Assembly: GCA_965655095.1 (NCBI GenBank)
Contig: OZ296650.1
Location: forward strand, 19,406,001 to 19,470,000
Source: Haplodiscus bocki
Taxonomy: Eukaryota
Direction: 5' to 3'
DNA length: 64,000 bases
Below, piece by piece: positions 1-64,000 of this stretch; within the stretch, counting starts at the first letter, position 1, and every line of letters starts with the position of its first letter. Below the pieces are notes generated by a model. That model saw only the letters and a program-made list of their open reading frames with translations, was not told where the DNA came from and did not search any database. The position numbers and the translations under genes were made by a program.

Positions 1-1360
1 AATCCCTACAAAATCAACGCTTTAGAGTATGGAAAGAAGGAACTGGTACCCATTCGTGTCAGCAAGAAATACGATACAGACTTTGACGTTGACTTATTGG
101 AGGATGGTCTAACTCATCACTATGTGCTCATAACAAACCTAAAAAATCTAATCTGCCGCGTAAATGATCGAACTCTGCCATCGGAAGATTGTCTGCCGAA
201 ACTGCTTTCATACATGTTCTTCAAAGGAATTATACGAGCGACACTTTGTGAGCCGTTTCAACAATGAACCTGCCTTGATACAGATGCCAAAGCCGGAGGA
301 AAACAATATGAAGGTCACGAACATTCAAAGTCGATGGTTCGCTCCAATAGTTATTGACTTTGATTTATAGTCCCTCTTTCAACCGGTTTTCAGTTGTTTA
401 CAGGATGGTGAAAAAGCCACTACCATTGAAATACACAAAGCTTGTGGGTTTTGCTTAGTGGGGGTTGAGCATGGTAATCCTACACCAGTTTTAATTCAAG
501 TTGATAGGTCAGAAGATTGCATGCGGAAATTAGTTGTGGCATTGAAATGAATTGCGCAAGATGTGCATGGTCAAAAGCATTCCAACAAGTATTTCAATGA
601 TTTCATTCCCGAAAGCCCGCAGACCTCTCGAAAGTGCTGGGTGTGCGACGGCTTATTTGTTGAAGAAAGTCAAGTAGAAAGAGAGCTAGACCATTGTCAC
701 TACGTTGGGGAATTCTTCGGCTATGCACACAACAAATGCAATCTCAAAAGAAGCACGCTCAATTCATTGCAATGATAGCACATATTCTCTCCAACTACGA
801 CCTACACGATTTGTTCAAAAAACTTCATCGGTTCGGGACAGAATGGAAAATGGAAGTTATTCAATCAACAGACGAGAAATACATCAATTTGTCAGCAGTC
901 GTACCGAAGCCAACGTACTAGGACAAGAACGGCGTAACAAAGACTGTATTTGGATATCTGAGGTTTGTTGTGTCCCTACGATTGATGTCATCACTCGACA
1001 AATTGGTTACCTTCCTTCCAGTAGACAACTTCTCATAACTGCACAGTCATTTCATCAGCGACTGTTCTGATGACCAAAAGCGTCTATTGCACCGCAAAGG
1101 TGTCTAGTATAACACCTATTTTGATGATCCTGGTAAATTGATGGCGCAATATTTACCACCGTTGAACTGTTGAAAAAATTCTCAACAGCAGGGAGAAGTA
1201 GGCATCAGTCGAGACGAATGGAATCACGCTAATGAGGTGTTTATTAGTTTTGATCGCAAAAAGCTTGGAGATTACCAGGAGCTATTCTTGGAACAGACAC
1301 TCTGTTACTAGCATGCGTGGTGGAGGAGTTCCCTAAATTGTGTAATGAGACCTTAAATCA
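1..1360 (+). pseudogene. U0, partial long monomer (A-type)
   Basis: Begins inside the vOTU region; contains the EndoVII segment. Confidence 0.88.
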
Positions 1361-2717
1361 TTGAACTGCTGACTCAACATTAGTGGCCACCATGATCACA
1401 ATTGTTGTAGATAATGCTTTCGCTGCAAGGCATTGAAGGTATGGTCCATCGCTACAGCCACCCGGTCAAGATATGCGTCGGTTGAAAACAAACCCGAGCA
1501 CGTATTACCCCTCTAACCCGCTGGCTCTTCAACCAGAAGGTGATTTTGAAATGCCGATAGGAATTGGACAGATGTCAAGATTTGAAGAAATGGATCTCAA
1601 AATCAACATTTTGGAATATGGAAACAAGGAACTGCTACCCAATCGTGTCAGCAAGAAATGCTATACTGACTTCGACGTTGACTTATTCTTATTGAGGAAA
1701 GGTTTAACTCATCACTATATGCTCATAACAAACCTAAAAAGTTTAATCTGCCGCGTAAATGGTCGAACTCTGTCATCGAGAGATTGTCACTGCCGAAACT
1801 GCTGTCATATATGTTCTTAAAAGGAAATATACGAGCGACACATTGTGAGCTGTTTCAACAACGAACCTACATTGGTACAGATGCCAAAGCCAGAGAAAAA
1901 CAAAATGCAGGTCACTAACATTCAAGATCGATGGTTTGCTCTAATATTTATTCACTTCGACTTGTAATCCTTCTATCAAACTGTTTCCCGTTGTTTACAG
2001 GATGTTGAAAAAGCCACTACCATTGAAATACACAAAGCTTGTGGGGTTTCCTTAGTGGGGATTGAGCATGGTAACGCTACACCAGTTTTAATTCAAGATG
2101 AAAGGTCAGAAATCTCTCCAACTACGACCTACACCATTTGTGCTAAAATCTTTCATCGATTCGCGGCAGAAAGCAAAATGGAAGTTGCCATTAAAAGGCA
2201 AGAAGTTCTTGCCATTAACAGGCGAGAAATAGATAAGCTTGTCAGCAGGCTTACCAATGCAAACGCACTCGGAAATGAACGGCCTTATAAAGACTGTCTT
2301 TGAATTTTGAATTTCTGAGGTTTGTTGAGTCCCTGCGAGTCATGTCATCATCACCCGACAAATTGGTTACCTTTCTTCCAGAAGACAACTTCTCATACCT
2401 GCACAGACATTTCAGGGACTGTTCTGACGACCAAAAGCGTCTATTGCACCGCAAAGGTTTCTATCCTTACACCTATTTTGATGATCGTGGTAAACTCATG
2501 GAAAAATTTTTACCACCGTTGAACTGTTGAAAAAATTCGCAACAGCAGGGATAAGTCAGCATGAGTCAAGACGATTGGAATCAGGCTTATCAGGTGTTCA
2601 AAGGCTTTGTTAGCAAAAACCTTGGAGATTACAATGACATATACTTAGAACAGACACTCTGTCACTAGCTTGCGTGGTGGAGGAGTTCCCTAATGTGTGT
2701 TATGAGACCTTAAGTCA
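1361..2717 (+). pseudogene. U1, short monomer, B head (1357 bp)
   Basis: EndoVII deletion junction at 2110/2111. Confidence 0.88.
2181..2226 (+). repeat. Imperfect ~21-bp tandem duplication (GAAGTT..GCCATTAA.AGGC.)
   Basis: Read directly; repeated at 5136-5181 and absent from other short units. Confidence 0.85.
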
Positions 2718-4315
2718 GTGAAGTGCTTACTCAACTTTAGAAGTCCAAATGATCACAATTGTTTTATATACTGCTTTATCGCTGCATGGCTTTCAAAGTA
2801 TGGTCCGTCGCTCCAGCCACCTGGTCAAGATATGCATCGGTTGAAAACAAACCCGAGCACGTACTCCCCCTCTAACCCGCTGGCTCATCAACCAAAAGGT
2901 GAATTTGAAATGCCGATGGGAATTTGACAGATGTCAAGAATGAAAGAAACGAATCCCTACAAAATCAACGCTTTAGAATATGGAAAGAAGGAACTGGTAC
3001 CCATTCGTGTCAGCAAGAAATACGATGCAGACTTTGACGTTGACTTATTCTTATAGGAGGATGGTCTAACTCATCACTATGTGCTCATAACAAACCTAAA
3101 AAATCTAATCTGCCGCGTAAATGATCGAATTCTGCCATCGGAAGATTGTCTGCCGAAACTGCTTTCATACATGTTCTTCAAAGGAATTATACGAGCGACA
3201 CTTTGTGAGCCGTTTCAACAATGAACCTGCCTTGATACAGATGCCAAAGCCGGAGGAAGACAAATTGAAGGTCACAAACATTCAAGGTCGATGGTTCGCT
3301 CCAATAGTTATTGACTTTGATTTATAGTCCCTCTTTCAACCGGTTTTCGGTTGTTTACAGGATGGTGAAAAAGCCACTACCATTGAAATACACAAAGCTT
3401 GTAGGTTTTGCTTAGTGGGGGTTGAGCATGGTAATCCTACACCAGTTTTAATTCAAGTTGATAGGTCAGAAGATTGCATGCGGAAATTAGTTGTGGCATT
3501 GAAATGAATTGCGCAAGATGTGCTTGGTCAAAAGCATTCCAACAAGTATTTCAATGATTTCATTCCTGAAAGCCCCCAGACCTCTCGAAAGTGCTGGATG
3601 TGCAACGGCGTCTTTAATGAAGAAAGTCAAGTAGATAAAGAGGTAGACCATTGTCACTACGGTGGGGAATTCCTCGGCTATGCACACAACAAATGCAATC
3701 TCAAAAGAAGAACGCTCAACTTCATTGCAATGATAGCACATATTCTCTCCAACTACGACATACACCATTTGTTCAAAAAACTTCATCGGTTCGGGGCAGA
3801 ATGGAAAATGGAAGTTATTCCATCAACAGACGAGAAATACATCAATTTGTCAGCAGTCGTACCGAAGCCAACGTACTAGGACAAGAACGGCGTAACAAAG
3901 ACTGTATTTGGATATCTGAGGTTTGTTGTGTCCCTACGATTGATGTCATCACTCGACAAATTGGTTACCTTCCTTCCAGTAGACAACTTCTCATACCTGC
4001 ACAGCCATTTCAGGGACTATTCTGTTGACCAAAAGCGTCGATTGCACCGCAAAGGTGTCTAGTATTACACCTATTTTGATGATCCTGGTAAATTGATGGC
4101 GCAATATTTACCACCGTTGAACTGTTGAAAAAATTCTCAACAGCAGGGAGAAGTAGGCATCAGTCGAGACGAATGGAATCACGCTAATGAGGTGTTTATT
4201 AGTTTTGATCGCAAAAAGCTTGGAGATTACCAGGAGCTATTCTTGGAACAGACACTCTGTTACTAGCATGCGTGGTGGAGGAGTTCCCTAAATTGTGTAA
4301 TGAGACCTTAAATCA
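2718..4315 (+). pseudogene. U2, long monomer, A head (1598 bp)
   Basis: KCLLNFRS head; EndoVII ORF at 3520-3879. Confidence 0.88.
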
Positions 4316-5672
4316 TTGAACTGCTGACTCAACATTAGTGGCCACCATGATCACAATTGTTGTAGATAATGCTTTCGCTGCAAGGCATTCAAGGTATGGT
4401 CCATCGCTACAGCCACCCGGTCAAGATATGCGTCGGTTGAAAACAAACCCGAGCACGTATTACCCCTCTAACCCGCTGGCTCTTCAACCAGAAGGTGATT
4501 TTGAAATGCCGATAGGAATTGGACAGATGTCAAGATTTGAAGAAATGGATCTCAAAATCAACATTTTGGAATATGGAAACAAGGAACTGCTACCCAATCG
4601 TGTCAGCAAGAAATGCTATACTGACTTCGACGTTGACTTATTCTTATTGAGGAAAGGTTTAACTCATCACTATATGCTCATAACAAACCTAAAAAGTTTA
4701 ATCTGCCGCGTAAATGGTCGAACTCTGTCATCGAGAGATTGTCACTGCCGAAACTGCTGTCATATATGTTCTTAAAAGGAAATATACGAGCGACACATTG
4801 TGAGCTGTTTCAACAACGAACCTACATTGGTACAGATGCCAAAGCCAGAGAAAAACAAAATGCAGGTCACTAACATTCAAGATCGATGGTTTGCTCTAAT
4901 ATTTATTCACTTCGACTTGTAATCCTTCTATCAAACTGTTTCCCGTTGTTTACAGGATGTTGAAAAAGCCACTACCATTGAAATACACAAAGCTTGTGGG
5001 GTTTCCTTAGTGGGGATTGAGCATGGTAACGCTACACCAGTTTTAATTCAAGATGAAAGGTCAGAAATCTCTCCAACTACGACCTACACCATTTGTGCTA
5101 AAATCTTTCATCGATTCGCGGCAGAAAGCAAAATGGAAGTTGCCATTAAAAGGCAAGAAGTTCTTGCCATTAACAGGCGAGAAATAGATAAGCTTGTCAG
5201 CAGGCTTACCAATGCAAACGCACTCGGAAATGAACGGCCTTATAAAGACTGTCTTTGAATTTTGAATTTCTGAGGTTTGTTGAGTCCCTGCGAGTCATGT
5301 CATCATCACCCGACAAATTGGTTACCTTTCTTCCAGAAGACAACTTCTCATACCTGCACAGACATTTCAGGGACTGTTCTGACGACCAAAAGCGTCTATT
5401 GCACCGCAAAGGTTTCTATCCTTACACCTATTTTGATGATCGTGGTAAACTCATGGAAAAATTTTTACCACCGTTGAACTGTTCAAAAAATTCGCAACAG
5501 CAGGGATAAGTCAGCATGAGTCAAGACGATTGGAATCAGGCTTATCAGGTGTTCAAAGGCTTTGTTAGCAAAAACCTTGGAGATTACAATGACATATACT
5601 TAGAACAGACACTCTGTCACTAGCTTGCGTGGTGGAGGAGTTCCCTAATGTGTGTTATGAGACCTTAAGTGA
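4316..5672 (+). pseudogene. U3, short monomer, B head (1357 bp)
   Basis: Near-identical to U1 at +2955. Confidence 0.88.
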
Positions 5673-7266
5673 GTGAAGTGCTTACTCAACTTTAGAAGTC
5701 CAAATGATCACAATTGTTTTATATACTGCTTTATCGCTGCATGGCTTTCAAAGTATGGTCCGTCGCTCCAGCCACCTGGTCAAGATATGCATCGGTTGAA
5801 AACAAACCCGAGCACGTACTCCCCCTCTAACCCGCTGGCTCATCAACCAAAAGGTGAATTTGAAATGCCGATGGGAATTTGACAGATGTCAAGAATGAAA
5901 GAAACGAATCCCTACAAAATCAACGCTTTAGAATATGGAAAGAAGGAACTGGTACCCATTCGTGTCAGCAAGAAATACGATACAGACTTTGACGTGGACT
6001 TATTGGAGGATGGTCTAACTCATCACTATGTGCTCATAACAAACCTAAAAAATCTAATCTGCCGCGTAAATGATCGAATTCTGCCATCGGAAGATTGTCT
6101 GCCGAAACTGCTTTCATACATGTTCTTCAAAGGAATTATACGAGCGACACTTTGTGAGCCGTTTCAACAATGAACCTGCCTTGATACAGATGCCAAAGCC
6201 GGAGGAAGACAAATTGAAGGTCACAAACATTCAAGGTCGATGGTTCGCTCCAATAGTTATTGACTTTGATTTATAGTCCCTCTTTCAACCGGTTTTCGGT
6301 TGTTTACAGGATGGTGAAAAAGCCACTACCATTGAAATACACAAAGCTTGTAGGTTTTGCTTAGTGGGGGTTGAGCATGGTAATCCTACACCAGTTTTAA
6401 TTCAAGTTGATAGGTCAGAAGATTGCATGCGGAAATTAGTTGTGGCATTGAAATGAATTGCGCAAGATGTGCTTGGTCAAAAGCATTCCAACAAGTATTT
6501 CAATGATTTCATTCCTGAAAGCCCCCAGACCTCTCGAAAGTGCTGGATGTGCAACGGCGTCTTTAATGAAGAAAGTCAAGTAGATAAAGAGGTAGACCAT
6601 TGTCACTACGGTGGGGAATTCCTCGGCTATGCACACAACAAATGCAATCTCAAAAGAAGAACGCTCAACTTCATTGCAATGATAGCACATATTCTCTCCA
6701 ACTACGACCTACACCATTTGTTCAAAAAACTTCATCGGTTCGGGGCAGAATGGAAAATGGAAGTTATTCCATCAACAGACGAGAAATACATCAATTTGTC
6801 AGCAGTCGTACCGAAGCCAACGTACTAGGACAAGAACGGCGTAACAAAGACTGTATTTGGATATCTGAGGTTTGTTGTGTCCCTACGATTGATGTCATCA
6901 CTCGACAAATTGGTTACCTTCCTTCCAGTAGACAACTTCTCATACCTGCACAGCCATTTCAGGGACTATTCTGTTGACCAAAAGCGTCGATTGCACCGCA
7001 AAGGTGTCTATCCTTACACCTATTTTGATGATCATGTTAAATTCATGGAAAAGTTTTTTTACCACAGTTGAACTGTTGGAAAAATTCTCAACATCAGGGA
7101 GAAGTAAGCATCAGTCGAGACGAATGGAATCACGCTAATGAGGTGTTTATTAGTTTTGATCGCAAAAAGCTTGGAAATTACCAGGAGCTATTCCTGGAAC
7201 AGACACTCTGTTACTAGCATGCTTGGTGGAGGAGTTCCCTAAAATGTGTTATGAGAGCTTAAATCA
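5673..7266 (+). pseudogene. U4, long monomer, A head (1594 bp)
   Basis: EndoVII ORF at 6469-6828. Confidence 0.88.
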
Positions 7267-8578
7267 TTGAACTGCTTACTCAACATTAGTGGCCACCATG
7301 ATCACAATTGTTGTAGATAATGCTTTCGCTGGAAGGCATTCAAAGTATGGTCCATCGCTGCAGTCACCTGGTGAAGGTATGCGTCGGTTGAAAACAAACC
7401 CGAGCACGTATTCCCCCTCTAACCCGCTGGCTCTTCAACCAAAAGGTGAGTTTGAAATGCCGATGGGAATTGGACAGATGTCAAGATTTGAAGAAATGGA
7501 TCTCAAAATCAACATTTTGGAATATGGAAACAAGGAACTGGTACCCAATCGTGTCAGCAAGAAATGCTATACTGACTTTGACGTTGACTTATTCTTATTG
7601 AGGAAAGGTTTAACTCATCACTATATGCTCATAACAAACCTAAAAAGTTTAATCTGCCGCGTAAATGGTCGAACTCTGTCATCGAGAGATTGTCACTGCC
7701 GAAACTGCTGTCATATATGTTCTTCAAAGGAAATATACGAGCGACACATTGTGAGCTGTTTCAACAACGAACCTACATTGGTACAGATGCCAAAGCCAGA
7801 GAAAAACAAAATGCAGGTCACAAACATTCAAGATCGATGGTTTGCTCTAATATATATTCACTTCTATTAAACGGTTTCCCGTTGTTTACAGGATGGTGAA
7901 AAAGCCACTACCATTGAAATACACAAAGTTTGTGGGGTTTCCTTAGTAGGGGTTGAGCATGGTAACGCTACACCAGTTTTAATTCAAGATGAAAGGTCAG
8001 AAATGTCTCCAACTACGACCTACACCATTTGTGCTAAAATCTTCGTCGACTCGAAGCAGAAAGCAAAATGGAAGTTTTTCCATCAACAGGCGAGAAATAG
8101 ATAAGCTTGTCTGCAGACTTACCAATGCAAACGCACTCGGAAAAGAACGGCCTAATAAAGACTGTCTTTGAATTTCTGAAGTTTGTTGATTCCCTGCGAA
8201 TCATGTCATCATCGCCCGACAAATTGGTTACCTTTCTTCCAGAAGACAACTTCTCATACCTGCACAAACATTTCAGGGACTGTTCTGACGACAAAAAGCG
8301 TCTATTGCACCGCAAAGGTTTCTATCTTTACACCTATTTTGATGATCGTGGTAAATTCATGGAAAATTTTTTACCACCGTTGAACTGTTGGAAAAATTCT
8401 TAACAGCAGGGATAAGTAAGAATGAGTCAAGACGCATTGAATCAGGCTTATCAGGTGTTCAAAAGCTTTGTTAGCAAAAACCTTGGAGATTACAATGACA
8501 TATACTTAGAACAGACACTCTGTCACTAGCTTGCGTGGTGGAGGAGTTCCCTAATGTGTGTTATGAGACCTTAAGTCA
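7267..8578 (+). pseudogene. U5, short monomer, B head (1312 bp)
   Basis: Extra 15-bp deletion at ExoI (~7864); retains FVDS. Confidence 0.88.
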
Positions 8579-10172
8579 GTGAAGTGCTTACTCAACTTTA
8601 GAAGTGCAAATGATCACAATTGTTTTCTGTACTGCTTTATCGCTGCATGGCTTTCAAAGTATGGTCCGTCGCTGCAGCCACCTGGTCAAGATATGCATCG
8701 GTTGAAAACAAACCCGAGCACGTACTCCCCCTCTAACCCGCTGGCTCATCAACCAAAAGGTGAATTTGAAATGCCGATGGGAATTTGACAGATGTCAAGA
8801 ATGAAAGAAACGAATACCTACAGAATCAACGCTTTAGAATATGGAAAGAAAGAACTGGTACCCATTCGTGTCAGCAAGAAATACGATGCAGACTTTGACG
8901 TTGACTTATTCTTATAGGAGGATGGTCTAACTCATCACTATGTGCTCATAACAAACCTAAAAAATCTAATCTGCCGCGTAATTGATCGAACTCTGCCATC
9001 GGAAAATTGTCTGCCGAAACTGCTTTCATACATGTTCTTCAAAGGAATTATACGAGCGACACTTTGTGAGCCGTTTCAACAATGAACCTGCCTTGATACA
9101 GATGCGAAAGCCGGAGGAAAACAATATCAAGGTCACAAACATTCAAGGTCGATGGTTCGCTCCCATAGTTATTTACTTTGTATTATAGTCCCTCATTCAA
9201 CCGGTTTTCGGTTGTTTACAGGATGGTGAAAAAGCCACTACCATTGAAATACACAAAGCTTGTAGGTTTTGCTTAGTGGGGGTTGAGCATGGTAATCCTA
9301 CACCAGTTTTAATTCAAGTTGATAGGTCAGAAGATTGCATGCGGAAATTAGTTGTGGCATTGAAATGAATTGCGCAAGATGTGCATGGTCAAAAGCATTC
9401 CAACAAGTATTTCAATGATTTCATTCCTGAAAGCCCCCAGGCCTCTCGAAAGTGCTGGATGTGCGACGGCTTCTTTGTTGAAGAAAGTCAAGTAGATAAA
9501 GAGCTAGACCATTGTCACTACGGTGGGGAGTTCTTCGGCTATGCACACAACAAATGCAATCTCAAAAGAAGCACGCTCAATTCATTGCAATGATAGCACA
9601 TATTCTCTCCAACTACGACCTACACCATTTGTTCAAAAAACTTCATCGGTTCGGGACAGAATGGAAAATGGAAGTTATTCCATCAACAGACGAGAAATAC
9701 ATCAATTTGTCAGCAGTCGTACCGAAGCCAACGTACTAGGACAAGAACGGCGTAACAAAGACTGTATTTGGATATCTGAGGTTTGTTGTGTCCCTACGAT
9801 TGATGTCATCACTCGACAAATTGGTTACCTTCCTTCCAGTAGACAACTTCTCATACCTGCACAGCCATTTCAGGGACTATTCTGTTGACCAAAAGCGTCG
9901 ATTGCACCGCAAAGGTGTCTATCCTTACACCTATTTTGATGATCATGTTAAATTCGTGGCGCAATATTTACCACCGTTGAACTGTTGAAAAAATTCTCAA
10001 CAGCAGGCAGAAGTAAGCATCAGTCGAGACGAATGGAATCACGCTAATGAGGTGTTTATTAGTTTTGATCGCAAAAAGCTTGGAGATTACCAGGAGCTAT
10101 TCTTGGAACAGACACTGTGTTACTAGCATGCGTGGTGGAGGATTCCCTAAAACGTGATGAGACCTTAAATCA
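8579..10172 (+). pseudogene. U6, long monomer, A head (1594 bp)
   Basis: Junction and EndoVII segment present. Confidence 0.88.
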
Positions 10173-11507
10173 TTGAACTGCTTACTCAACATTAGTGGCC
10201 ACCATGATCACAATTGTTGTAGATAATGCTTTCGCTGCAAGTCATTCAAGGTATGGTCCATCGCTACAGCCACCCGGTCAAGATATGCGTCGGTTGAAAA
10301 CAAACCCGAGCACGTATTCCCCCTCTAACCCGCTGGCTCTTCAACCAGAAGGTGATTTTGAAATGCCGATAGGAATTGGACAGATGTCAAGATTTGAAGA
10401 AATGGATCTCAAAATCAACATTTTGGAATATGGAAACAAGGAACTGGTACCCAATCGTGTCAGCAAGAAATGCTATACTGACTTTGACGTTGACTTATTC
10501 TTATTGAGGAAAGGTTTAACTCATCACTATATGCTCATAACAAACCTAAAAAGTTTAATCTGCCGCGTAAATGGTCGAACTCTGTCATCGAGAGATTGTC
10601 ACTGCCGAAACTGCTGTCATATATGTTCTTCAAAGGAAATATACGAGCGACACATTGTGAGCTGTTTCAACAACGAACCTGCATTGGTACAGATGCCAGA
10701 GCCAGAGAAAAACAAAATGCAGGTCGCAAACATTCAAGATCGATGGTTTGCTCTAATATATATTCACTTCGACTTGTAATCCTTCTATCAAACGGTTTCC
10801 CGTTGTTTACAGGATGGTGAAAAAGCCACTACCATTGAAATACACAAAGCTTGTGGGATTTCCTTAGTGGGGGTTGAGCATGGTAACGCTACACCAGTTT
10901 TAATTCAAGATGAAAGGTCAGAAATCACTCCAACTACGACCTACAGCATTTGTGCTAAAATCTTTCATCGATTCGGGGCAGAAAGCAAAATGGAAGTTTT
11001 TCCATCAACAGGCGAGAAATAGATAAGCTTGTCAGCAGGCTTACCAATGCAAACGCACTCGGAAATGAACGGCCTTATAAAGACTGTCTTTGAATTTTGA
11101 ATTTCTGAGGTTTGTTGAGTCCCTGCGAATCATGTCATCATCACCCGACAAATTGGTTACCTTTCATCCAGAAGACAACTTCTCATACCTGCACAGACAT
11201 TTCAGGGACTGTTCTGACGACCAAAAGCGTCTATTGCACCGCAAAGGTTTCTATCTTTACACCTATTTTGATTATCGCGGTAAATTCAACGAAATTTTTT
11301 TACCACCGTTGAACTGTTGAAAAAATTCTCAACAGCAGGCATAAGTAAGCATGAGTCAAGACGAATGGAATCAGGCTTATCAGGTGTTCAAAAGCTTTGT
11401 TAGCAAAAACCTTGGAGATTACAATGACATATACTTAGAACAGACACTCTGTCAGTAGCTTGCGTGGTGGAGGAGTTCCCAAATGTGTGTTATGAGACCT
11501 TGAGTCA
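10173..11507 (+). pseudogene. U7, short monomer, B head (1335 bp)
   Basis: Junction present; EndoVII deleted. Confidence 0.88.
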
Positions 11508-35580: not shown

Positions 35581-35787
35581 AAAAATCTAATCTGTCGCCT
35601 AAATGATCGAACTCTGCCATCGGAAGATTGTCTCCGCCGAAACTGCTTTCATACATGTTCTTCAAAGGAATTATACGAGCGACACTTTGTGAGCCGTTTC
35701 AACAATGAACCTGCCTTGATACAGACGCCAAAGCCGGAGGAAAACAATATGAAGGTCACAAACATTCAAGGTCGATGGTTCGCTCCA

Positions 35788-41400: not shown

Positions 41401-41586
41401 AAAATTCTCAACATCAGGGAGAAGTAAGCATCAGTCGAGACGAATGGAATCACGCTAATGAGGTGTTTATTAGTTTTGATCGCAAAAAGCTTGGAGATTA
41501 CCAGGAGCTATTCTTGGAACAGACACTCTGTTACTAGCATGCGTGGTGGAGGAGTTCCCTAAAATGTGTTATGAGACCTTAAATCA
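38401..41586 (+). pseudogene. U25-U26, two long B-head monomers (1593 bp each)
   Basis: Identical 194-aa ORFs at 38423 and 40016. Confidence 0.88.
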
Positions 41587-51701: not shown

Positions 51702-54700
51702 TTGAACTGCTTACTCAACATTAGTGGCCACCATGATCACAATTGTTGTAGATAATGCTTTCGCTGCAAGGCATTTAAAGTATGGTCCATCGCTGCAGCC
51801 ACCTGGTGAAAGTATGCGTCGGTTGAAAACAAACCCGAGCACGTATTCCCCCTCTAACCCGCTGGCTCTTCAGCCAAGAGGTGAATTTGAAATGCCGATG
51901 GGAATTGGACAGATGTCAAGATTTGAAGAAATGGATCTCAAAATCAACATTTTGGAAGATGGAAACAAGAAACTGGTACCCAATCGTGTCAGCAAGAAAT
52001 GCTTTACTGACTTTGACGACTTATTTTTATTGAAGAAAGGTTTAACTCATCACTATGTGCTCATAACAAACCTTAAAAACTTAAATGGTCGAACTCTGTC
52101 ATCGAGAGATTGTCATTGCCGAAACTGCTTTCATATATGTTCTTCAAAGGAAATATACGAGCGATACATTGTGAGCTGTTTCAACAACGAACCTGCATTG
52201 GTACAGATGCCAAAGCAGAGAAAAGCAAAATGCAGGTCACAAACTTTCAAGATCGATGGTTTGCTCTAATATTTATTCACTTCGACTTGTAATCCTTCTA
52301 TCAAACGGTTTCCCGTTGTTTACAGGATGGTGAAAAAGCCACTACCATTGAATTACACAAAGCTTGTGGGTTTTGCTTAGTGGGGGTTGAGCATGGTAAC
52401 GCTACACCAGTTTTAATTCAAGATGAAAGGTCAGAAACCTCTCTAACTACGACCTACACCATTTGTGCTAAAATCTTTCATCGTTTCGGGGCAGAAAGCA
52501 AAATGGAAGTTTTTCCATCAACAGGCGAGAAATAGGTAAGCTTGTCAGCAGGCTTACCAATGCAAACGCACTCGGAAAAGAACGGCCTAATAAAGACTGT
52601 CTTTGAATTTCTGAGGTTTGTTGAATACCTGCGAATCATGTCATCATCACCCGACAAATTGGTTACCTTCCTTTCAGAAGACAAATTCTCATACCTGCAC
52701 AGACATTTTAGGGACTGTTCTGACGACCAAAAGCGTTTATTGCACCGCAAAGGTTTCTATCTTTACACCTATTTTGATGATCGTGGTAAATTCATGGAAA
52801 TTTTTTTACCACCGTTGAACTGTTGAAAAAATTCTCAACAGCAGGGATAAGTAAGCATGAGTCAAGACGAATGGAATCACGCTTATCAGGTGTTGAAAAG
52901 CTTTGTTAGCAAAAACCTTGGAGATTACAATGACATATACTTAGAACAGACACTCTGTCAGTAGCTTGCGTGGTGGAGGAGTTCCCTAATGTGTGTTATG
53001 AGACCTTAAGTCAGTGAAGTGCTTACTCAACTTTAGAAGTCCCAATGATCACAATTGGTTTATATACTGCTTTATCACTGCATGGCTTTCAAAGTATGGT
53101 CCGTCGCTGCAGCCACCTGGTCAAGATATGCATCGGTTGAAATCAAACGAGCACGTACTCCCCATCTAACCCGCTGGCTCTTCAGCCAAGAGGTGAATTT
53201 GAAATGCCGATGGGAATTGGACAGATGTCAAGATTTGAAGAAATGGATCTCAAAATCAACATTTTGGAAGATGGAAACAAGGAACTGGTACCCAATCGTG
53301 TCAGCAAGAAATGCTTTACTGACTTTGACGACTTATCTTTATTGAAGAAAGGTTTAACTCATCACTATGTGCTCATAACAAACCTTAAAAACTTAAATGG
53401 TCGAACTCTGTCATCGAGAGATTGTCACTGCCGAAACTGCTTTCATATATGTTCTTCAAAGGAAATATACGAGCGATACATTGTGAGCTGTTTCAACAAC
53501 GAACCTGCATTGGTACAGATGCCAAAGCCAGAGAAAAGCAAAATGCAGGTCACAAACATTCAAGATCGATGGTTTGCTCTAATATTTATTCACTTCGACT
53601 TGTAATCCTTCTATCAAACGGTTTCCCGTTGTTTACAGGATGGTGAAAAAGCCACTACCATTGAATTACACAAAGCTTGTGGGTTTTGCTTAGTGGGGGT
53701 TGAGCATGGTAATGCTACACCAGTTTTAATTCAAGATGAAAGGTCAGAAACCTCTCCAACTACGACCTACACCATTTGTGCTAAAATCTTTCATCGTTTC
53801 GGGGCAGAAAGCAAAATGGAAGTTTTTCCATCAACAGGCGAGAAATAGGTAAGCTTGTCAGCAGGCTTACCAATGCAAACGAACTCGGAAAAGAACGGCC
53901 TAATAAAGACTGTCTTTGAATTTCTGAGGTTTGTTGAATACCTGCGAATCATGTCATCATCACCCGACAAATTGGTTACCTTTCTTTCAGAAGACAACTT
54001 CTCATACCTGCACAGACATTTCAGGGACTGTTCTGACGACCAAAAGCGTTTATTGCACCGCAAAGTTTTCTATCTTTACACCTATTTTGATTATCGAGGT
54101 AAATTCAGCGAAATTTTTTACCACCATTGAACTGTTGAAAAAATTCCCAACAGCAGGGATAAGTAGGCATGAGTCAAGACGAATGGAATCACGCTTATCA
54201 GGTGTTGAAAAGCTTTGTTAGCAAAAACCTTGGAGATTACAATGACACATACTTAGAACAGACACTCTGTCACTAGCTTGCGTGGTGAAGGAGTTCCCTA
54301 ATGTGTGTTATGAGACCTTAAGTCAGTGAGGTGCTTACTCAACTTTAGAAGTCCCAATGATCACAATTGTTTTATATACTGCTTTATCGCTGCATGGCTT
54401 TCAAAGTATGGTCCGTCGCTGCAGCCACCTGGTCAAGATATGCATCGGTTGAAAACAAACCCGAGCACTTACTCCCCTCTAACCCGCTGGCTCATCAACC
54501 AAAATGTGAATTTGAAATGCCGATGGGAATTTGACAGATGTCGAGATTTGAAGAAATGAATCCCTACAAAATCAACGCTTTGGAATATGGAAAGAAGGAA
54601 CTGGTACCCATTCGTGTGAGGAAGAAATACGATACTGACTTTGACGTTGACTTATTCTTATTGGAAGATGGTCTAACTCATCACTATGTGCTCATAACAA

Positions 54701-57700
54701 ACCTAAAAAATCTAATCTGCTGCGTAAATGATCGAACTCTGCCATCGGAAGATTGTATCTGCCGAAACTGCTTTCATATTTGTTCTTCAAAGGAATTTTA
54801 CGAGCGACACATTGTGAGCTGTTTCAACAATGAACCTGCCTTGATACAGATGCAAAAGCCGGAGGAAAACAATATTAAGGTCACAAACATTCAAGGTCGA
54901 TGGTTCGCTCCAATAGTTATTTACTTTGATTTATAGTCCCTCATCCAACCGGTTTTCGGTTGTTTACAGGATGGTGAGAAAGCCACTACCATTGAAATAC
55001 ACAAAGCTTGTGGGTTTTGCTTAGTGGGGGTTGAGCATGGTAATGCTACACCACTTTTAATTCATAATGAAAAGTCAGAAATCTCTCCAACTACGACCTA
55101 CACCATTTGTACAAAAATCTCCATCGAATCGGGGCAGAAAGCAAAATGGAAATTATTTCTTCAACAGACGAGAAATAGATAAGCTTGTCAGCAGGCGTAC
55201 CAATGCAAACGCACTAGGAAAAGAACGGCTTAATAAAGACTGTATTTGGTTTTCTGATGTTTCTTGAGTCCCTGCGAATCATGTCATCATCACCCGACAA
55301 ATTGGTTACCTTTCTTCCAGAAGACAACTTCTCATACCTGCATAGCCATTTCAGGGACTGTTCCGACAACCAAAAGCGTCTGTTGCACCGCAAAGGTTTC
55401 TCTCTTTACACCTGTTTTGATTATCATGGTAATTTCATGGAAAATTTTTTACCACCGTTGAATTGTTGAAAAAATTCTTAACAGCAGGGATAAGTAAGCG
55501 TGAGTCAAGACAAATGGAATCACGCTTATCAGGTGTTCAAAAGCTTTGTTAGCAAAAACCTTGGATATTACAATGACACATACTTAGAACAGACACTCTG
55601 TCACTAGCTTGCGTGGTGGAGGAGTTCCCTAATGTGTGTTATGAGACCTTAAGTCAGTGAAGTGCTTACTCAACTTTAGAAGTCCCAATGATCACAATTG
55701 TTTTATATACTGCTTTATCGCTGCATGGCTTTCAAAGTATGGTCCGTCGCTGCAGCCACCTGGTCAAGATATGCATCGGTTGAAAACAAACCCGAGCACT
55801 TACTCCCCTCTAACCCGCTGGCTCATCAACCAAAATGTGAATTTGAAATGCCGATGGGAATTTGATAGACGTCGAGATTTGAAGAAATGAATCCCTACAA
55901 AATCAACGCTTTGGAATATGGAAAGAAGGAACTGGTACGCATTCGTGTGAGCAAGAAATACGATACTGAATTTGACGTTGACTTATGCTTATTGGAGGAT
56001 GGTCTAACTCATCACTATGCGCTCATAACAAACTTAAAAAATCTAATCTGCTGCGTAAATGATCGAACTCTGCCATCGGAAGATTGTCTCTGCCGAAACT
56101 GCTTTCATTCATGTTCTTCAAAGGAAATATACGAGCGACACATTGTGAGCTGTTTCAACAATGAACCTTCATTGATACAGATGCCAAAGCCAGAGTAAAA
56201 CAAAATGAACGTCACAAACTTTCAAGCTCGATGGTTCGCTCCATCAGTTATTTACTTCGACTTGTAATCCTTCTATCAAGCGGTTTCCCGTTGTTTACAG
56301 GATGGTGAAAAAGCCACTACCAGTGAAATACACAAAGCTTGTGGGTTTTCCTTAGTGGGGGTTGAGCATGGTAATGCTACACCACTTTTAATTCATGATG
56401 AAAAGTCAGAAATCTCTCCAACTACGACCTTCACCATTTGTACAAAAATCTTCATCGAATCGGGGCAGAAAGCAAAATGGAAATTATTTCTTCAACAGAC
56501 GAGAAATAGATAAGCTTGTCAGCAGGCGTACCAATGCAAACGCACTAAGAAAAGAACGGCTTAATAAAGACTGTATTTGGTTTTCTGAGGTTTGTTGAGT
56601 CCCTGCGAATCAGGTCATCATCACCCGACAAATTGGTTACCTTTCTTCCAGAAAACAACTTCTCATACCTGCACAGACATTTCAGGGACTGTTCTGATGA
56701 CCAAAAAGCGTTTATTGCACCGCAAAGGTTTCTATCTTTACACCTGTTTTGATGATCATGGTAATTTGATGCAAAATTTTTTACCACCGTTGAACTGTTG
56801 AAAAAATTCTTAACAGCAGGGATAAGTAAGCGTGAGTCGAGACAAATGGAATCACGCTTATCAGGTGTTCAAAAGCTTTGTTAGCAAAAACCTTGGAGAT
56901 TACAATGACACATACTTAGAACAGACACTCTGTCACTAGCTTGCGTGGTGGAGGAGTTCCCTAATGTGTGTTATGAGACCTTAAGTCAGTGAAGTGCTTA
57001 CTCAACTTTAGAAGTCCCAATGATCACAATTGTTTTATATACTGCTTTATCGCTGCATGGCTTTCAAAGTATGGTCCGTCGCTGCAGCCACCTGGTCAAG
57101 ATATGCATCGGTTGAAAACAAACCCGAGCACGTACTCCCCCTCTAACCCGCTGGCTCATCAACCAAAAGGTGAATTTGAAATGCCGATGGGAATTTGACA
57201 AATGTCAAGATTGAAAGAAACGAATCCCTACAAAATCAACGCTTTGGAATATGGAAAGAAGGAACTGGTACGCATTCGTGTCAGCAAGAAATACGATACT
57301 GACTCTGACGTTCACTTATTCTTATTGGAAGATGGTCTAACTCATCACTATGTGCTCATAACAAACCTGAAAAAATCCAATCTGCCGCGTAAATGATCGA
57401 ACTCTGCCATCGGAAGATTGTCTCTGCCGAAACTGCTTTCATTCATGTTCTTCAAAGGAAATATACGAGCGACACATTGTGAGCTGTTTCAACAATGAAC
57501 CTGCATTGATACAGATGCAAAAGCCAGAAGAAAACAAAATGAACGTCACAAACTTTCAAGCTCGATGGTTCGCTCCATTAGTTATTTACTTCGACTTGTA
57601 ATCCTTCTATCAAGCGGTTTCCCGTTGTTTACAGGATGGTGAAAAAGCCACTACCAGTGAAATACACAAAGCTTGTGGGTTTTCCTTAGTGGGGGTTGAG

Positions 57701-60700
57701 CATGGTAATGCTACACCACTTTTAATTCATGATGAAAATCAGAAATCTCTCCAACTACCACCTACACCATTTGTACAAAAATCTTCATCGAATCGGGGCA
57801 GAAAGCAAAGTGGAAATTATTTCTTCAACAGACGAGAAATAGATAAGCTTGTCAGCAGGCGTACCAATGCAAACGCACTAGGAAAAGAACGGCTTAATAA
57901 AGACTGTATTTGGTTTTCTGAGGTTTGTTGAGTCCCTGCGAATCATGTCATCATCACCCGACAAATTGGTTACCTTTCTTCCAGAAGACAACTTCTCATA
58001 CCTGCACAGCCATTTCAGGGACTGTTCCGACAACCAAAAGCGTCTGTTGCACCGCAAAGGTTTGTATCGTTACACCTATTTTGATTATCGCGGTAAATTC
58101 AGCGAAATTTTTTTACCACCGTTGAACTGTTGAAAAAATTCGCAACAGCAGGGATAAGTAAGCATGAGTCAAGACGAATGGATTCACGCTTATCAGGTGT
58201 TGAAAAGCTTTGTTAGCAAAAACCCTGGAGATTACAATGACACATACTTAGAACAGACACTCTGTCACTAGCTTGCGTGGTGGAGGAGTTCCCTAATGTG
58301 TGTTATGAGACCTTAAGTCAGTGAAGTGCTTACTCAACTTTAGAAGTCCCAATGATCACAATTGTTTTATATACTGCTTTATCGCTGCATGGCTTTCAAA
58401 ATATGGTCCATCGCTGCAGCCACCTGGTCAAGATATGCATCGGTTGAAAACAAACCCGAGCACGTACTCCCCGTCTAACCCGCTGGCTCATCAACCAAAA
58501 GGTGAATTTGAAATGCCGATGGGAATTTGACAAATGTCAAGATTTGAAGAAATGAATCCCTACAAAATCAACGCTTTGGAATATGGAAAGAAGGAACTGG
58601 TACCCATTCGTGTGAGCAAGAAATACGATACTGAATTTGACGTTGACTTATGCTTATTGGAGGATGGTCTAACTCATCACTATGCGCTCATAACAAACTT
58701 AAAAAATCTAATCTGCTGCGTAAATGATCGAACTCTGCCATCGGAAGATTGTCTCTGCCGAAACTGCTTTCATTCATGTTCTTCAAAGGAAATATACGAG
58801 CGACACATTGTGAGCTGTTTCAACAATGAACCTTCATTGATACAGATGCCAAAGCCAGAGTAAAACAAAATGAACGTCACAAACTTTCAAGCTCGATGGT
58901 TCGCTCCATTAATTATTAACTTCGACTTGTAATCCTTCTATCAAACGGTTTCCCGTTGTTTACAGGATGGTGAAAAAGCCGCTACCATTGAAATACACAA
59001 AGCTTGTGCGTTTTCCTTAGTGGGGGTTGAGCATGGTAACGCTACACCAGTTTTAATTCATGATGAAAGGTTAGAACTCTCTCCAACTACGACCTACACC
59101 ATTTGTGCAAAAATCTTCATCGAATCGGGGCAGAAAGCAAAATGGAAATTATTCCTTCAACAGACGAGAAATAGATAAGCTTGTCAGCAGGCGTACCAAT
59201 GCAAACGCACTAGGAAAAGAACGACTTAATAAAGACTGTATTTGGTTTTCTGAGGTTTGTTGAGTCCCTGCGAATCATGTCATCATCACCCGACAAATTG
59301 GTTACCTTTCTTCCAGAAAACAACTTCTCATACCTGCACAGACATTTCAGGGACTGTTCCGACAACCAAAAGCGTCTGTTGCACCGCAAAGGTTTCTATC
59401 GTTACACCTATTTTGATTATCGCGGTAAATTCAGCGAAATTTTTTTACCACCGTTGAACTGTTGAAAAAATTCGCAACAGCAGGGATAAGTAAGCATGAG
59501 TCAAGACGAATGGATTCACGCTTATCAGGTGTTGAAAAGCTTTGTTAGCAAAAACCCTGGAGATTACAATGACACATACTTAGAACAGACACTCTGTCAC
59601 TAGCTTGCGTGGTGGAGGAGTTCCCTAATGTGTGTTATGAGACCTTAAGTCAGTGAAGTGCTTACTCAACTTTAGAAGTCCCAATGATCACAATTGTTTT
59701 ATATACTGCTTTATCGCTGCATGGCTTTCAAAATATGGTCCATCGCTGCAGCCACCTGGTCAAGATATGCATCGGTTGAAAACAAACCCGAGCACGTACT
59801 CCCCGTCTAACCCGCTGGCTCATCAACCAAAAGGTGAATTTGAAATGCCGATGGGAATTTGACAAATGTCAAGATTTGAAGAAATGAATCCCTACAAAAT
59901 CAACGCTTTGGAATATGGAAAGAAGGAACTGGTACCCATTCGTGTGAGCAAGAAATACGATACTGAATTTGACGTTGACTTATGCTTATTGGAGGATGGT
60001 CTAACTCATCACTATGCGCTCATAACAAACCTAAAAAATCTAATCTGCTGCGTAAATGATCGAACTCTGCCATCGGAAGATTGTCTCTGCCGAAACTGCT
60101 TTCATTCATGTTCTTCAAAGGAAATATACGAGCGACACATTGTGAGCTGTTTCAACAATGAACCTTCATTGATACAGATGCCAAAGCCAAAGTAAAACAA
60201 AATGAACGTCACAAACTTTCAAGCTCGATGGTTCGCTCCATTAGTTATTAACTTCGACTTGTAATCCTTCTATCAAACGGTTTCCCGTTGTTTACAGGAT
60301 GGTGAAAAAGCCACTACCATTGAAATTTACAAAGCTTGTGGGTTTTCCTTAGTGGGGGTTGAGCATGGTAACGCTACACCAGTTTTAATTCATGATGAAA
60401 GGTTAGAAATCTCTCCAACTACGAACTACACCATTTGTGCAAAAATCTTCATCGAATCGGGGCAGAAAGCAAAATGGAAATTATTCCTTCAACAGACGAG
60501 AAATAGATAAGCTTGTCAGCAGGCGTACCAATGCAAACGCACTAGGAAAAGAACGACTTAATAAAGACTGTATTTGGTTTTCTGAGGTTTGTTGAGTCCC
60601 TGCGAATCATGTCATCATCACCCGACAAATTGGTTACCTTTCTTCCAGAAGACAACTTCTCATACCTGCACAGACATTTCAGGGACTGTTCTGACGACCA

Positions 60701-63700
60701 AAAGCGTCTATTGCACCGCAAAGGTTTCTATCTTTACACCTATTTTGATTATCGCGGTAAATTCAACGAAATTTTTTTACCACCGTTGAACTGTTGAAAA
60801 AATTCTCAGCAGCAGGCATAAGTAAGCATGGGTCAAGACGAATGGAATCAGGCTTATCAGGTGTTCAAAAGCTTTGTTAGCAAAAACCTTGGAGATTACA
60901 ATGACATATACTTAGAACAGACACTCTGTCACTAGCTTGCGTGGTGGAGGAGTTCCCAAATGTGTGTTATGAGACCTTGAGTCAGTGAAGTGCTTACTCA
61001 ACTTTAGAAGTCCAAATGATCACAATTGTTTTTTATACTGCTTTATCGCTGCATGGCTTTCAAAATATGGTCCATCGCTGCAGCCACCTGGTCAAAATAT
61101 GCGTGGGCGGAAAACAAACCCGAGCACTTACTCCCCTCTAACCCGCTGGCTCATCAACCAAAATGTGAATTTGAAATTCCGATGGGAATTTGACAAATGT
61201 CAAGATTGAAAGAAACGAATCCCTACAAATCAACGCTTTGGAATATGGAAAGAAGGAACTGGTACCCATTCGTGTCAGCAAGAAATATAATACTGACTTT
61301 GACGTTCACTTATTCTTATTGGAAGATGGTCTAACTCATCACTATGTGCTCATAACAAACCTAAAAAAATCCAATCTGCCGCGTAAATGATCGAACTCTG
61401 CCATCGGAAGATTTTCTCTGCCGAAACTGCTTTCATTCATGTTCTTCAAAGGAAATATACGAGTGACACATTGTGAGCTGTTTCAACAATGAACCTGCAT
61501 TGATACAGATGCCAAAGCCAGAGGAAAACAAAATGAACGTCACAAACTTTCAAGCTCGATGGTTCGCTCCATTAGTTATTTACTTCGACTTGTAATCCTT
61601 CTATCAAGCGGTTTCCCGTTGTTTACAGGGTGGTGAAAAAGCCACTACCAGTGAAATACACAAAGCTTGTGGGTTTTCCTTAGTGGGGGTTGAGCATGGT
61701 AATGCTACACCACTTTTAATTCATGATGAAAACTCAGAAATCTCTCCAACTACGACCTACACCATTTGTGCAAAAATCTTCATCGAATCGGGGCAGAAAG
61801 CAAAATGGAAATTATTTCTTCAACAGACGAGAAATAGATAAGCTTGTCAGTATGCGTACCATTGCAAACGCACTAGGAAAAGAACGGCCTAGTAAAGACT
61901 GTATTTGAATTTCTGAGGTTTGTTGAGTCCCTGCGAATCATGTCATCATCACCCGACAAATTGGTTACCTTTCTTCCAGAAGACAACTTCTCATACCTGC
62001 ACAGGCATTTCAGGGACTGTTCCGACAACCAAAAGCGTCTGTTGCACCGCAAAGGTTTATCGTTACACCTATTTTGATTATCGCGGTAAATTCAGCGAAG
62101 TTTTTTTACCACCGTTGAACTGTTGAAAAAGTTCTCAACAGCAGGGATAAGTTAGCATGAGTCAAGACGAATGGAATCACGCTTATCAGGTGCTGAAACG
62201 CTTTGTTAGCAGAAACCTTGGAGATTACAATGACATATACTTAGAACAGACACCCTGTCACTAGCTTGCGTGGTGGAGGAGTTCCCTAATGTGTGTTATG
62301 AGACCTTAAGTCAGTGAAGTGCTTACTCAACTTTAGAAGTCCCAATGATCACAATTGTTTTATATACTGCTTTATCGCTGCATGGCTTTCAAAATATGGT
62401 CCATCGCTGCAGCCACCTGGTCAAGATATGCATCGGTTGAAAACAAACCCGAGCACGTACTCCCCGTCTAACCCGCTGGCTCATCAACCAAAAGGTGAAT
62501 TTGAAATGCCGATGGGAATTTGACAAATGTCAAGATTTGAAGAAATGAATCCCTACAAAATCAACGCTGTGAAATGTGGATAGAAGGAACTGGTACCCAT
62601 TCGTGTCAGCAAGAAATACGATACTGACTTTTACGTTGACTTATTCCTATTGGAGGATGGTCTAACTCATCACTATGCGCTCATAACAAACCTAAAAAAT
62701 CTAATCTGCTGCGTAAATGATCGAACTCTGCCATCGGAAGATTGTCTCTGCCGAAACTGCTTTCATTCATGTTCTTCAAAAGAATTATACGAGCGACACT
62801 TTGTGAGCCGTTTCAACAATGAACCTGCCTTGATTCAGATGCCAAAGCCAGAGTAAAACAAAATGAACGTCACAAACTTTCAAGCTCGATGGTTCGCTCC
62901 ATTAGTTATTAACTTCGACTTGTAATCCTTCTATCAAACGGTTTCCCGTTGTTTACAGGATGGTGAAAAAGCCACTACCATTGAAATTTACAAAGCTTGT
63001 GGGTTTTCCTTAGTGGGGGTTGAGCATGGTAATGCTACACCACTTTTAATTCATGATGAAAACTCAGAAATCTCTCCAACTACGACCTACACCATTTATG
63101 CAAAAATCTTCATCGATTCGGGGCAGAAAGCAAAATGGAAATTATTTCTTCAACAGACGAGAAATAGATAAGCTTGTCAGTATGCGTACCATTGCAAACG
63201 CACTAGGAAAAGAACGGCCTAGTAAAGACTGTATTTGAATTTCTGAGGTTTGTTGAGTCCCTGCGAATCATGTCATCATCACCCGACAAATTGGTTACCT
63301 TTCTTCCAGAAGACAACTTCTCATACCTGCACAGGCATTTCAGGGACTGTTCCGACAACCAAAAGCGTCTGTTGCACCGCAAAGGTTTATCGTTACACCT
63401 ATTTTGATTATCGCGGTAAATTCAGCGAAGTTTTTTTACCACCGTTGAACTGTTGAAAAAGTTCTCAACAGCAGGGATAAGTTAGCATGAGTCAAGACGA
63501 ATGGAATCACGCTTATCAGGTGCTGAAACGCTTTGTTAGCAGAAACCTTGGAGATTACAATGACATATACTTAGAACAGACACCCTGTCACTAGCTTGCG
63601 TGGTGGAGGAGTTCCCTAATGTGTGTTATGAGACCTTAAGTCAGTGAAGTGCTTACTCAACTTTAGAAGTCCCAATGATCACAATTGTTTTATATACTGC

Positions 63701-64000
63701 TTTATCGCTGCATGGCTTTCAAAATATGGTCCATCGCTGCAGCCACCTGGTCAAGATATGCATCGGTTGAAAACAAACCCGAGCACGTACTCCCCGTCTA
63801 ACCCGCTGGCTCATCAACCAAAAGGTGAATTTGAAATGCCGATGGGAATTTGACAAATGTCAAGATTTGAAGAAATGAATCCCTACAAAATCAACGCTGT
63901 GAAATGTGGATAGAAGGAACTGGTACCCATTCGTGTCAGCAAGAAATACGATACTGACTTTTACGTTGACTTATTCCTATTGGAGGATGGTCTAACTCAT
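51702..64000 (+). repeat. U34-U43: nine consecutive short monomers (1312, 1312, 1331, 1332 x4, 1329, 1330 bp) plus a partial unit
   Basis: All complete units lack the EndoVII segment. A heads from 53014 onward. Confidence 0.92.
54760..54822 (+). other. C2HC/C2H2-type zinc finger remnant (example in U36)
   Basis: Translates to CRNCFHICSSKEFYERHIVSC. Present in all units; the last Cys is Arg in A-type middles. Confidence 0.75.

Follow-up and report, generated by a model that had tools for sequence, protein, structure and literature searches.

The window analysed here, 64,000 bases of the Haplodiscus bocki sequence C3, is the middle of a long tandem array. With one natural unit as query, 63,961 of its 64,000 bases were covered, all on the + strand, and every break in the coverage was shorter than 30 bases. 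As a preliminary description of this DNA had proposed, the 44 units touching the window (U06 to U49; 42 of them whole and 19 of the short class) lie in the same orientation with no other sequence between them. The same description placed the array beyond 64 kb, and rightly so. It spans C3:19,398,300-19,521,809, i.e. 123.5 kb with 84 units head to tail, and extends past the window by 7.7 kb to the left and 51.8 kb to the right. We found no N, no gap of at least 100 bases and no minus-strand piece across these 123.5 kb. Tandem Repeats Finder, with a period limit of 500, did not detect the array.

Table 1. Features of the array in the window, with positions counted from its first base.
Feature	Position	Strand	Remark
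Array middle (U06-U49)	1..64000	+	84-unit, 123.5-kb head-to-tail array inside pPolB of one Polinton
Alternating long/short dimers, ~2.93-2.95 kb, U06-U13	1..11504	+	Run begins left of the window at U02
Stretch of long unit U08 absent from all 40 short units	3471..3741	+	One shared deletion
Trimer of long units, ~4.79 kb, three times, U19-U27	19231..33603	+	Unit comparison
Representative long unit U21, 1,600 bp	22420..24019	+	Match to P0010 residues 244-774
Endonuclease-VII-like zinc-binding motifs (CxxC ... HxxC) of U21	23297..23404	+	Motif pattern
U21 region with the exonuclease II-like to III-like motifs	23443..23964	+	Placed by pattern
Example tail-to-head junction	24009..24031	+	Exact junction pattern, matches in this array alone
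Start of short-unit run, ~1.33 kb each, U40-U68 (29 units)	51699..64000	+	Run continues right of the window

Units, blocks and coding content

The array comprises 44 long and 40 short units. Short units lack about 275 bases through a single deletion common to all 40, which takes out the endonuclease-VII-like motifs, and the claim that every unit carries the same slice therefore fails for 40 of the 84. Neighbouring units also form blocks. Between U06 and U13 adjacent units are 13-15% apart and next-but-one units 0.1-4%. In the trimer run (U19 to U27) zero substitutions separate U21 from U24 and U22 from U25, with the monomers inside the trimer 3-7% apart. In the higher-order repeats of primate alpha satellite, multi-unit blocks are more alike than adjacent units and are repeated hundreds of times over megabases. 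Here blocks are likewise more alike than neighbours, but they recur 2-6 times across stretches of a few to 20 kb and differ between parts of the array, and a comparison of all 84 units found no one block repeated many times across it. The higher-order structure is local, and calling it alpha-satellite-like overstated what amounts to a few local dimers and one trimer present three times.

The 1,467-residue database relative P0010 is matched by U21 in four pieces and three frames at 49-68% identity, and all 84 units match it within residues 240-775 only. The repeated slice is the endonuclease-VII-like and exonuclease region of pPolB, not the polymerase core. The preliminary assignment to Polinton pPolB thus stands on relatives and collinear flanks, but its placement in the catalytic coding core does not. 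The exonuclease II-like to III-like motifs of U21 were located by their pattern. DNA_pol_B_2 was matched neither by 10 natural unit frames (0/10) nor by the three frames of U21 translated with X at stops (0/3), and P0010 and P0012 had no match to this model either. No OTU domain was seen in the Pfam searches, which included the three U21 frames. The endonuclease-VII-like region of three other units gave weak PF02945 matches below the cut-off (E 0.0035-0.017). Since U21 frames match no DNA_pol_B_2 model, the identity of the unit rests on relatives and flank. The longest open frame in any unit takes up 247 of about 530 codons, and no homologues of a 200-aa unit frame were found among longer proteins.

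The Polinton around the array

The array is not a free-standing satellite but is enclosed by the gene for the protein-primed family B DNA polymerase (pPolB) of a single defective Polinton. This host element spans about C3:19,388,750-19,527,280, that is 138.5 kb with the array and about 16.6 kb if the extra units are left out. Left of the array, outside the window, lie its ATPase gene, the candidate capsid and protease genes and the start of pPolB; to the right, also outside the window, the catalytic polymerase part of pPolB is present once. The left flank matches P0010 residues 52-230 and the right flank residues 777-1440, which include polymerase motifs A, B and C of P0010 (at 853, 1015 and 1111), so that flank, unit and flank are collinear with the 1,467-aa protein in a gene that is itself broken. 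Translated with X, the right flank gave a weak match to DNA_pol_B_2 (E 0.0011) and one to DNA_pol_B (E 0.0082), neither reaching the cut-off. A younger relative on C4 has a corresponding natural frame that matches DNA_pol_B_2 (PF03175) at E 5e-15. The C4 relative's frame has 1,466 protein matches, none of them named among the 120 listed, and no solved structure matching it by sequence was found. The parent element itself, still surrounding the array, had been missed by the preliminary description.

The other genes were traced through relatives. The host ATPase (C3:19,391,904-19,392,598) is 55-63% alike to the ATPase frame of the C4 relative, which matches Pox_A32 at E 3e-4, just under the cut-off. 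The frame of the candidate double jelly-roll major capsid protein, matched by the host copy at 44-83% in pieces, has no Pfam match; its Atlas features reach 0.98 to clusters with 15-30% PF21738 DJR-like members, at a recognition value below the tool's threshold. After the capsid candidate comes a 168-aa frame without Pfam match, to which the host copy matches at 37-48%. By eye it has a His...Gln...Cys pattern, which may be the motif of an adenovirus-like cysteine protease. A retroviral-like integrase is present in four of five older relatives and in both young ones, and in the host copy no tblastn match to it was found at E up to 1. Because of this loss we file the host as a defective copy of a Polinton family and not as an intact element.

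Terminal inverted repeats of about 160 bp, 71-88% alike, lie at C3:19,388,750 and 19,527,280 and match the element ends of relatives on C1, C2, C5 and C10. The 6-bp target-site duplication and the AGT-AGT / ACT-ACT ends are absent from the host copy; the C4 relative has both a 6-bp duplication and the expected ends. The flanks of the host copy are inverted copies of each other. Dating the insertion by its terminal inverted repeats was rejected, since the repeat reaches into the host flank and includes a 1.3-kb stretch more than 99% identical, and has thus been overwritten.

In all five older dispersed relatives that we fetched the slice is single-copy. The nearest dispersed relatives of the unit are broken, and the distance to the closest one is 18-20%.

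Divergence, exchange and origin

Divergence among units ranges smoothly from 0 to 16% (median 10.8% over 3,486 pairs), and increases along the array from 5.7-6.9% at lags 1-2 to 11.4% at lag 40. The frequency of four-gamete incompatibilities rises from 0.21 for sites less than 50 bp apart to 0.57 beyond 600 bp, and 14 pairs of units differ by at most 1% in one segment and by at least 9% in another, i.e. they are mosaics. Variants among units fall on the three codon positions in numbers of 394, 341 and 393 (p 0.08), second positions being slightly spared, and pN/pS is 0.89, not 1. It is 0.33 and 0.35 in the two most distant relatives and 0.64-0.73 in the other three, a control that is partial, as past purifying selection is clear in only two of the five. 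These values suggest that units decay almost neutrally, without protein-coding constraint. None of the 43 codon columns holding a stop is fixed for it in all units, and relative to the relatives no indel is common to 95% or more of 22 sampled units. Amplification would therefore have begun while the gene was little decayed.

The word CTACA occurs at both breakpoints of the host copy, and among the five relatives on both sides in three and on each side in four. All 83 junctions have the length expected for a join through CTACA and none retains the word exactly; because it has changed in every one of them, we infer microhomology from the flanks and the spacing. The exact junction pattern has 54 matches in the 1.5-Gb assembly, 54/54 of them in this array. 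The array probably originated in a duplication through microhomology and then grew by unequal exchange. In the first duplication the CTACA words at the two breakpoints would have been joined, rather early after insertion of the element. Unequal crossing-over and gene conversion may then have expanded blocks of one to three units at various times up to very recently, and the array would now drift as one of many kilobase-unit repeats tolerated by the genome. We hold it to be quite probable that the array arose where it stands, by tandem amplification of the middle 1.6 kb of pPolB in one defective Polinton, with a start by microhomology and growth by unequal exchange both likely, and with no function. 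Going by its sequence, the array is likely to have no function. Yet, that 123.5 kb stay so free of later insertions in an element-rich region needs either steady turnover or some constraint.

One might argue that a single event made the first block, through template switching or rolling-circle copying (perhaps during protein-primed replication of the element itself, or from an excised circle), and that unequal exchange only reshaped it later. This would account for the whole-number copy count and the clean ends, for the lack of a fixed stop or near-universal indel, and for a deepest divergence among units (16%) that nears the distance to the nearest dispersed relative. Yet, whole numbers are also maintained by unequal exchange, and the units form a layered tree instead of a star, in which internal branches are long and the short units make up a single clade; divergence also spreads smoothly. 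We consider a one-step origin unlikely. An assembly artefact, in which a few copies would have been written out repeatedly, was a concern of the preliminary description itself and is hardly credible. Three pairs of units are identical, the four public runs belong to a single study, with the assembled sample possibly among them, and no contig from them reaches 31 bases on both sides of the flank-unit junction. Yet, just 13 of the 3,486 pairs are less than 1% apart, the tail-to-head and deletion joints occur in 4/4 runs from two samples, and contigs covering the unit add up to 47, 62, 73 and 97 times the depth of the single-copy flank contig, ratios that by the tool's own warning give no exact copy number. 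We regard the artefact reading as largely refuted.

Function and known satellites

Structural heterochromatin or centromeric DNA had been suggested for this array, and we find no support for either. In such a case the array would be all or part of the functional centromere or pericentromere of C3, like chromosome-specific repeats in chicken, where chromosome-specific arrays binding CENP-A exist (PMC11602149) and some are entered as CR1-derived in Table 1 of PMC6947457. The 330 kb to the right hold three more kilobase-unit arrays (periods of about 1.4, 0.9 and 0.7 kb) as well as three 200-N gaps, and the array itself carries no insertions. But it is a single locus of 123.5 kb, less than 0.01% of the assembly, and read depth and assembled copy number are of similar order, which leaves no large collapsed array hidden. 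Kilobase-period repeats are common in this genome, occurring also in five of 40 evenly spaced control stretches. Since chromosome-specific centromeric repeats exist, the single locus lowers the centromere case without closing it, and we judge such a role very improbable. It is equally doubtful that a polymerase fragment was recruited as C3-specific centromeric or pericentromeric-boundary DNA, which would make it a young centromere repeat that its viral parent still encloses. Methylated heterochromatin might show up as CpG decay, but there was no excess of transitions at CpG (39 of 100 sites, compared with 217 of 564 for the remaining C/G sites; p 0.91), which is a weak argument if the organism leaves repeats unmethylated; CpG observed/expected is 0.80 in the array and 0.90-0.94 elsewhere. 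The neighbouring and control arrays were considered as further Polinton or coding pieces and discarded as such, with no Polinton-protein match and 0/54 frames matching Pfam.

The host might instead retain the array as a piRNA-cluster-like silencing template against its Polintons. The genome does contain a possible target, a young family of Polintons whose copies are 98% identical and have long open frames, and all units lie on one strand. But the unit has no blastn match at E 1e-6 in the unit region of the two young copies fetched, unit pieces reach 40-62% protein identity to them, and the nearest dispersed relatives are broken and 19-29% away, so small RNAs from the array would have few matching targets. 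There is little reason to expect this role.

Our results fit what is known of satellites derived from transposable elements: a piece of an element forms a long array, with local homogenisation and exchange and without coding constraint. Such satellites include those from cetacean L1, potato Sobo, rye E3900, maize CRM1TR, pea PisTR-A and the CR1-derived Cen repeats of chicken (PMC6947457), as well as a Chenopodium satellite from the CACTA tnp2 domain (PMC7320549). As is likely for this array too, such families start from a duplicated part of an element that unequal crossing-over then expands, and short direct repeats at the ends have been proposed as a trigger (PMC6947457). Table 1 of that paper lists no Polinton, and most families it treats have spread and grown far past their parent, whereas this array is still at its birthplace. 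Satellite DNA from Polinton coding sequence is nevertheless already known. LmiSat34-299 of Locusta migratoria, homologous to the coding sequence of Polinton-1_LMi and also clustered at one chromosomal site, has a 299-bp unit obtained from short reads, against 1.3-1.6 kb here, and the passages on it name no gene and show no parent element around the array, whereas here parent, breakpoints and unamplified relatives are all visible (PMC4935994). The preliminary view that a kilobase satellite of coding origin is unusual was overstated, since satellites from element coding DNA, Polinton included, have been published; what stands out here is how well the array is preserved inside its parent. That parent has the pPolB and ATPase genes and short terminal inverted repeats of Polinton/Maverick elements, with candidates for their capsid and protease genes, and its roughly 16.6 kb without extra units compare with a reported mean of 16.9 kb for intact vertebrate copies (PMC8097293); unlike these, it is a 138.5-kb fossil with broken genes and neither integrase nor target-site duplication.

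Most satellites have lost their starting sequence and first breakpoints. With the parent, both breakpoints, 84 ordered units and five unamplified outgroups at hand, models for the birth of a satellite, with duplication through microhomology, unequal crossing-over, turnover of blocks and the spread of a deletion variant, can be tested at one locus, in an array for which no new function is shown. For annotators, the 84 pPolB matches found here are one insertion and not 84 Polintons.

The array and its units

We showed that the tandem array claimed in the preliminary description is real: the 44 units touching the window are all on the same strand, and blastn with a single natural unit as query aligns to 63,961 of the 64,000 bases, on the + strand only. 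Composition is uniform (GC 0.40-0.42 throughout). Inspection of the window and 200 kb to each side extends the array to 123.5 kb of C3, a 135-Mb sequence of this 1.5-Gb eukaryote assembly on which the window occupies positions 19,406,001-19,470,000, with no N, no gap of 100 bases and no inverted piece across this length. It divides into 84 whole units (U01-U84), 44 long (1,588-1,619 bp) and 40 short (1,312-1,357 bp). Every unit had been described as the same slice of coding sequence; they do come from one source region, but an identical stretch of about 275 bases is absent from all 40 short units. Long and short units alternate in the left part of the array, a trimer occurs three times in the middle (with two pairs of identical units), and 29 short units followed by 16 long ones lie to the right of it.

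Public reads (four runs from two samples of a single study, which may be the source of the assembly) bear on whether the array is an artefact. Contigs of all four runs contain both the tail-to-head joint and the deletion joint, and the summed depth of the unit averages 47, 62, 73 and 97 times that of a single-copy flank contig, a ratio that is not a copy number. No contig of these runs reaches 31 bases both ways at a flank-unit junction. The order of magnitude of the depth fits 84 copies, with neither false expansion nor large collapse.

The parent element and the repeated slice

The array lies within the pPolB gene of one defective Polinton (Maverick). This host copy aligns with older relatives from C3:19,388,750 to 19,523,990, a span holding ATPase, capsid, protease and pPolB; the alignment resumes at the short right end, close to C3:19,527,280. 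Without the 83 extra units the host copy would measure about 16.6 kb, to be compared with the mean of 16.9 kb given for intact vertebrate Mavericks in PMC8097293. Its genes are broken by stops and frame changes, and it has neither an integrase nor a target-site duplication. The sequences that flank the array on the left and right recur at six other loci (on C1, C2, C6, C8 and twice on C10, other sequences of the assembly), about 1.6-1.7 kb apart in unchanged orientation, and the slice is single-copy in all five older relatives examined (C1, C2, C5, C6, C10). What the family looks like is shown by two young copies, on C4 and C7, which are 98% identical; the former has a 6-bp target duplication and an AGT-AGT end. 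The young polymerase carries C2H2 fingers at its N-terminus, and its gene is followed by a 27-bp minisatellite of variable length that reads Lys/Arg-rich. Polinton-type elements are frequent in the assembly, and remnants also occur near the array and in one control stretch.

An inverted repeat frames element and array, and joins the end of the Polinton to about 1.65 kb of host sequence that is unique apart from this. The arms are >99% identical over 1.3 kb, dropping inward to 88% and 71% and outward to about 84%, as if conversion or template switching had recently acted on this tract between arms that are themselves old. The 3.1-kb segment from the end of the polymerase to the right terminus has no match in the seven relatives examined.

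Coordinates of the array, its neighbours and related elements
Feature	Location	Description
pPolB array	C3:19,398,300-19,521,809	84 units
Inverted repeat arms	C3:19,387,095-19,388,909 and 19,527,126-19,528,932	1.8 kb
Segment before right terminus	C3:19,523,990-19,527,126	3.1 kb
Second array	C3:19,534,425-19,627,000	~55 units of 1.4 kb, dimer structure, 70-99% identity
Third array	C3:19,630,000-19,642,000	period ~0.86-0.96 kb, built of 62-bp subrepeats
Fourth array	about C3:19,792,000-19,804,000	period ~0.71 kb
Young Polinton copies	C4:85.53-85.55 Mb, C7:21.21-21.23 Mb	~19-21 kb each
Polinton remnants	C3:19,294,800-19,299,600	near the array
Control stretch, array	C3:95.0 Mb	986-bp units
Control stretch, array	C3:29.0 Mb	1.1- and 1.5-kb units

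The identity of the unit is settled by the flanks; unit frames alone give only weak Endonuclease_7 matches (3 of 10 natural frames, E 0.0035-0.017). A C2H2-finger-like frame and further pPolB-like sequence precede the array on its left, and the polymerase motifs follow on its right. Along P0010, a 1,467-residue database relative, the left flank aligns to residues 52-230, the representative long unit U21 to 244-774 and the right flank to 777-1440, and the matches of all 84 units are confined to 240-775. Motifs A, B and C of P0010, placed by pattern, are at 853, 1015 and 1111. The right flank, translated with X at stops, matches DNA_pol_B_2 and DNA_pol_B weakly; the younger C4 relative matches DNA_pol_B_2 with an E of 5e-15, and its unit-equivalent part covers just the beginning of that profile. 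The slice is therefore the region ahead of the polymerase core, and its predicted content is an unnamed domain, an endonuclease-VII-like insert and an exonuclease. The assignment to a Polinton pPolB stands, the flanks being collinear with P0010, but not that to its coding core, as the slice precedes motifs A, B and C.

Birth and growth of the array

CTACA stands directly at both breakpoints of the host copy, and at both in three of five relatives. The 83 junctions are four variants of one length, equal to that expected for a CTACA join, and CTACA is unchanged in none of them. The simplest reading is that the array started by a duplication guided by this microhomology. No stop codon is fixed across all units (0 of 43 stop-holding codon columns, five of which reach half or more), no indel relative to the relatives is common to 95% of units (22 sampled), and divergence between units, up to 16.3% (median 10.8%), nears the 18-20% that separates flanks and units alike from the nearest dispersed relative. 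We therefore infer that amplification set in while the insertion was still fairly young, a date blurred by exchange between units.

Units are more alike when close, 5.7-6.9% apart at lags 1-2 vs 11.4% at lag 40. In a FastTree topology of the 84 units and five relatives (no support values), the units group apart from the relatives and the short ones form one clade. Among 164 informative columns, four-gamete incompatibility rises from 198 of 937 pairs at <50 bp to 3,460 of 6,111 at >600 bp, and 14 unit pairs combine near-identity in one segment with a difference of at least 9% in another. The units are thus mosaic. A 20-bp tandem duplication common to U37 and U39 (window 47523-47562 and 50458-50497) falls in the same columns as an insertion in U50, to the right of the window, and these columns are a likely marker of exchange between the long and short classes. 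Mosaicism and similarity of neighbours form the pattern expected of unequal crossing-over and conversion between units, by which the array would have grown; both are reviewed as mechanisms for satellites derived from transposable elements (PMC6947457).

The array is real and explained, and its kind is already known. The locust satellite LmiSat34-299, with its homology to Polinton coding sequence according to PMC4935994, resembles it in this relation, and PMC7320549 reports a satellite of Chenopodium that arose from the CACTA tnp2 domain. Our search of literature covering few subscription journals turned up no description of an array with kilobase-long units within its own parent Polinton. The value of the array is a full record of the birth of a satellite, rather than a new function.

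Function and the centromere question

The three codon positions share the variants among units evenly (394/341/393, p 0.08). Over 459 codons pN/pS is 0.89, against 0.33 and 0.35 for the two most distant relatives and 0.64-0.73 for the three nearer ones, all counted in the same way. Open frames of the units reach 247 codons at most. By these counts, the units are under no appreciable coding constraint.

The preliminary description had raised heterochromatin or centromeric DNA, and nothing favours the array being the centromere of C3. An exact junction pattern has 54 matches in the assembly, all inside the array (a control pattern has none), though it fits 54 of the 83 junctions, so that diverged arrays at other loci may have escaped it. 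CpG sites show no excess of transitions (39/100, vs 217/564 at other C/G sites). Kilobase-period tandem repeats of at least 3 kb occur in 5 of 40 evenly spaced 10-kb control stretches, two as multi-copy arrays spanning the stretch and three as few-copy duplications; such repeats are thus ordinary here, and the assembly seems rich in kilobase-unit macrosatellites. Yet the centromere reading, though unlikely, is kept alive by chromosome-specific repeats bound by CENP-A in chicken, as described in PMC11602149, and by three other kilobase-unit arrays within 330 kb to the right. The second array, found at one place only, is unrelated to the pPolB array, and two features break it up: the remnant of a different Polinton polymerase (C3:19,572,700-19,575,700) and an 8.8-kb duplication.
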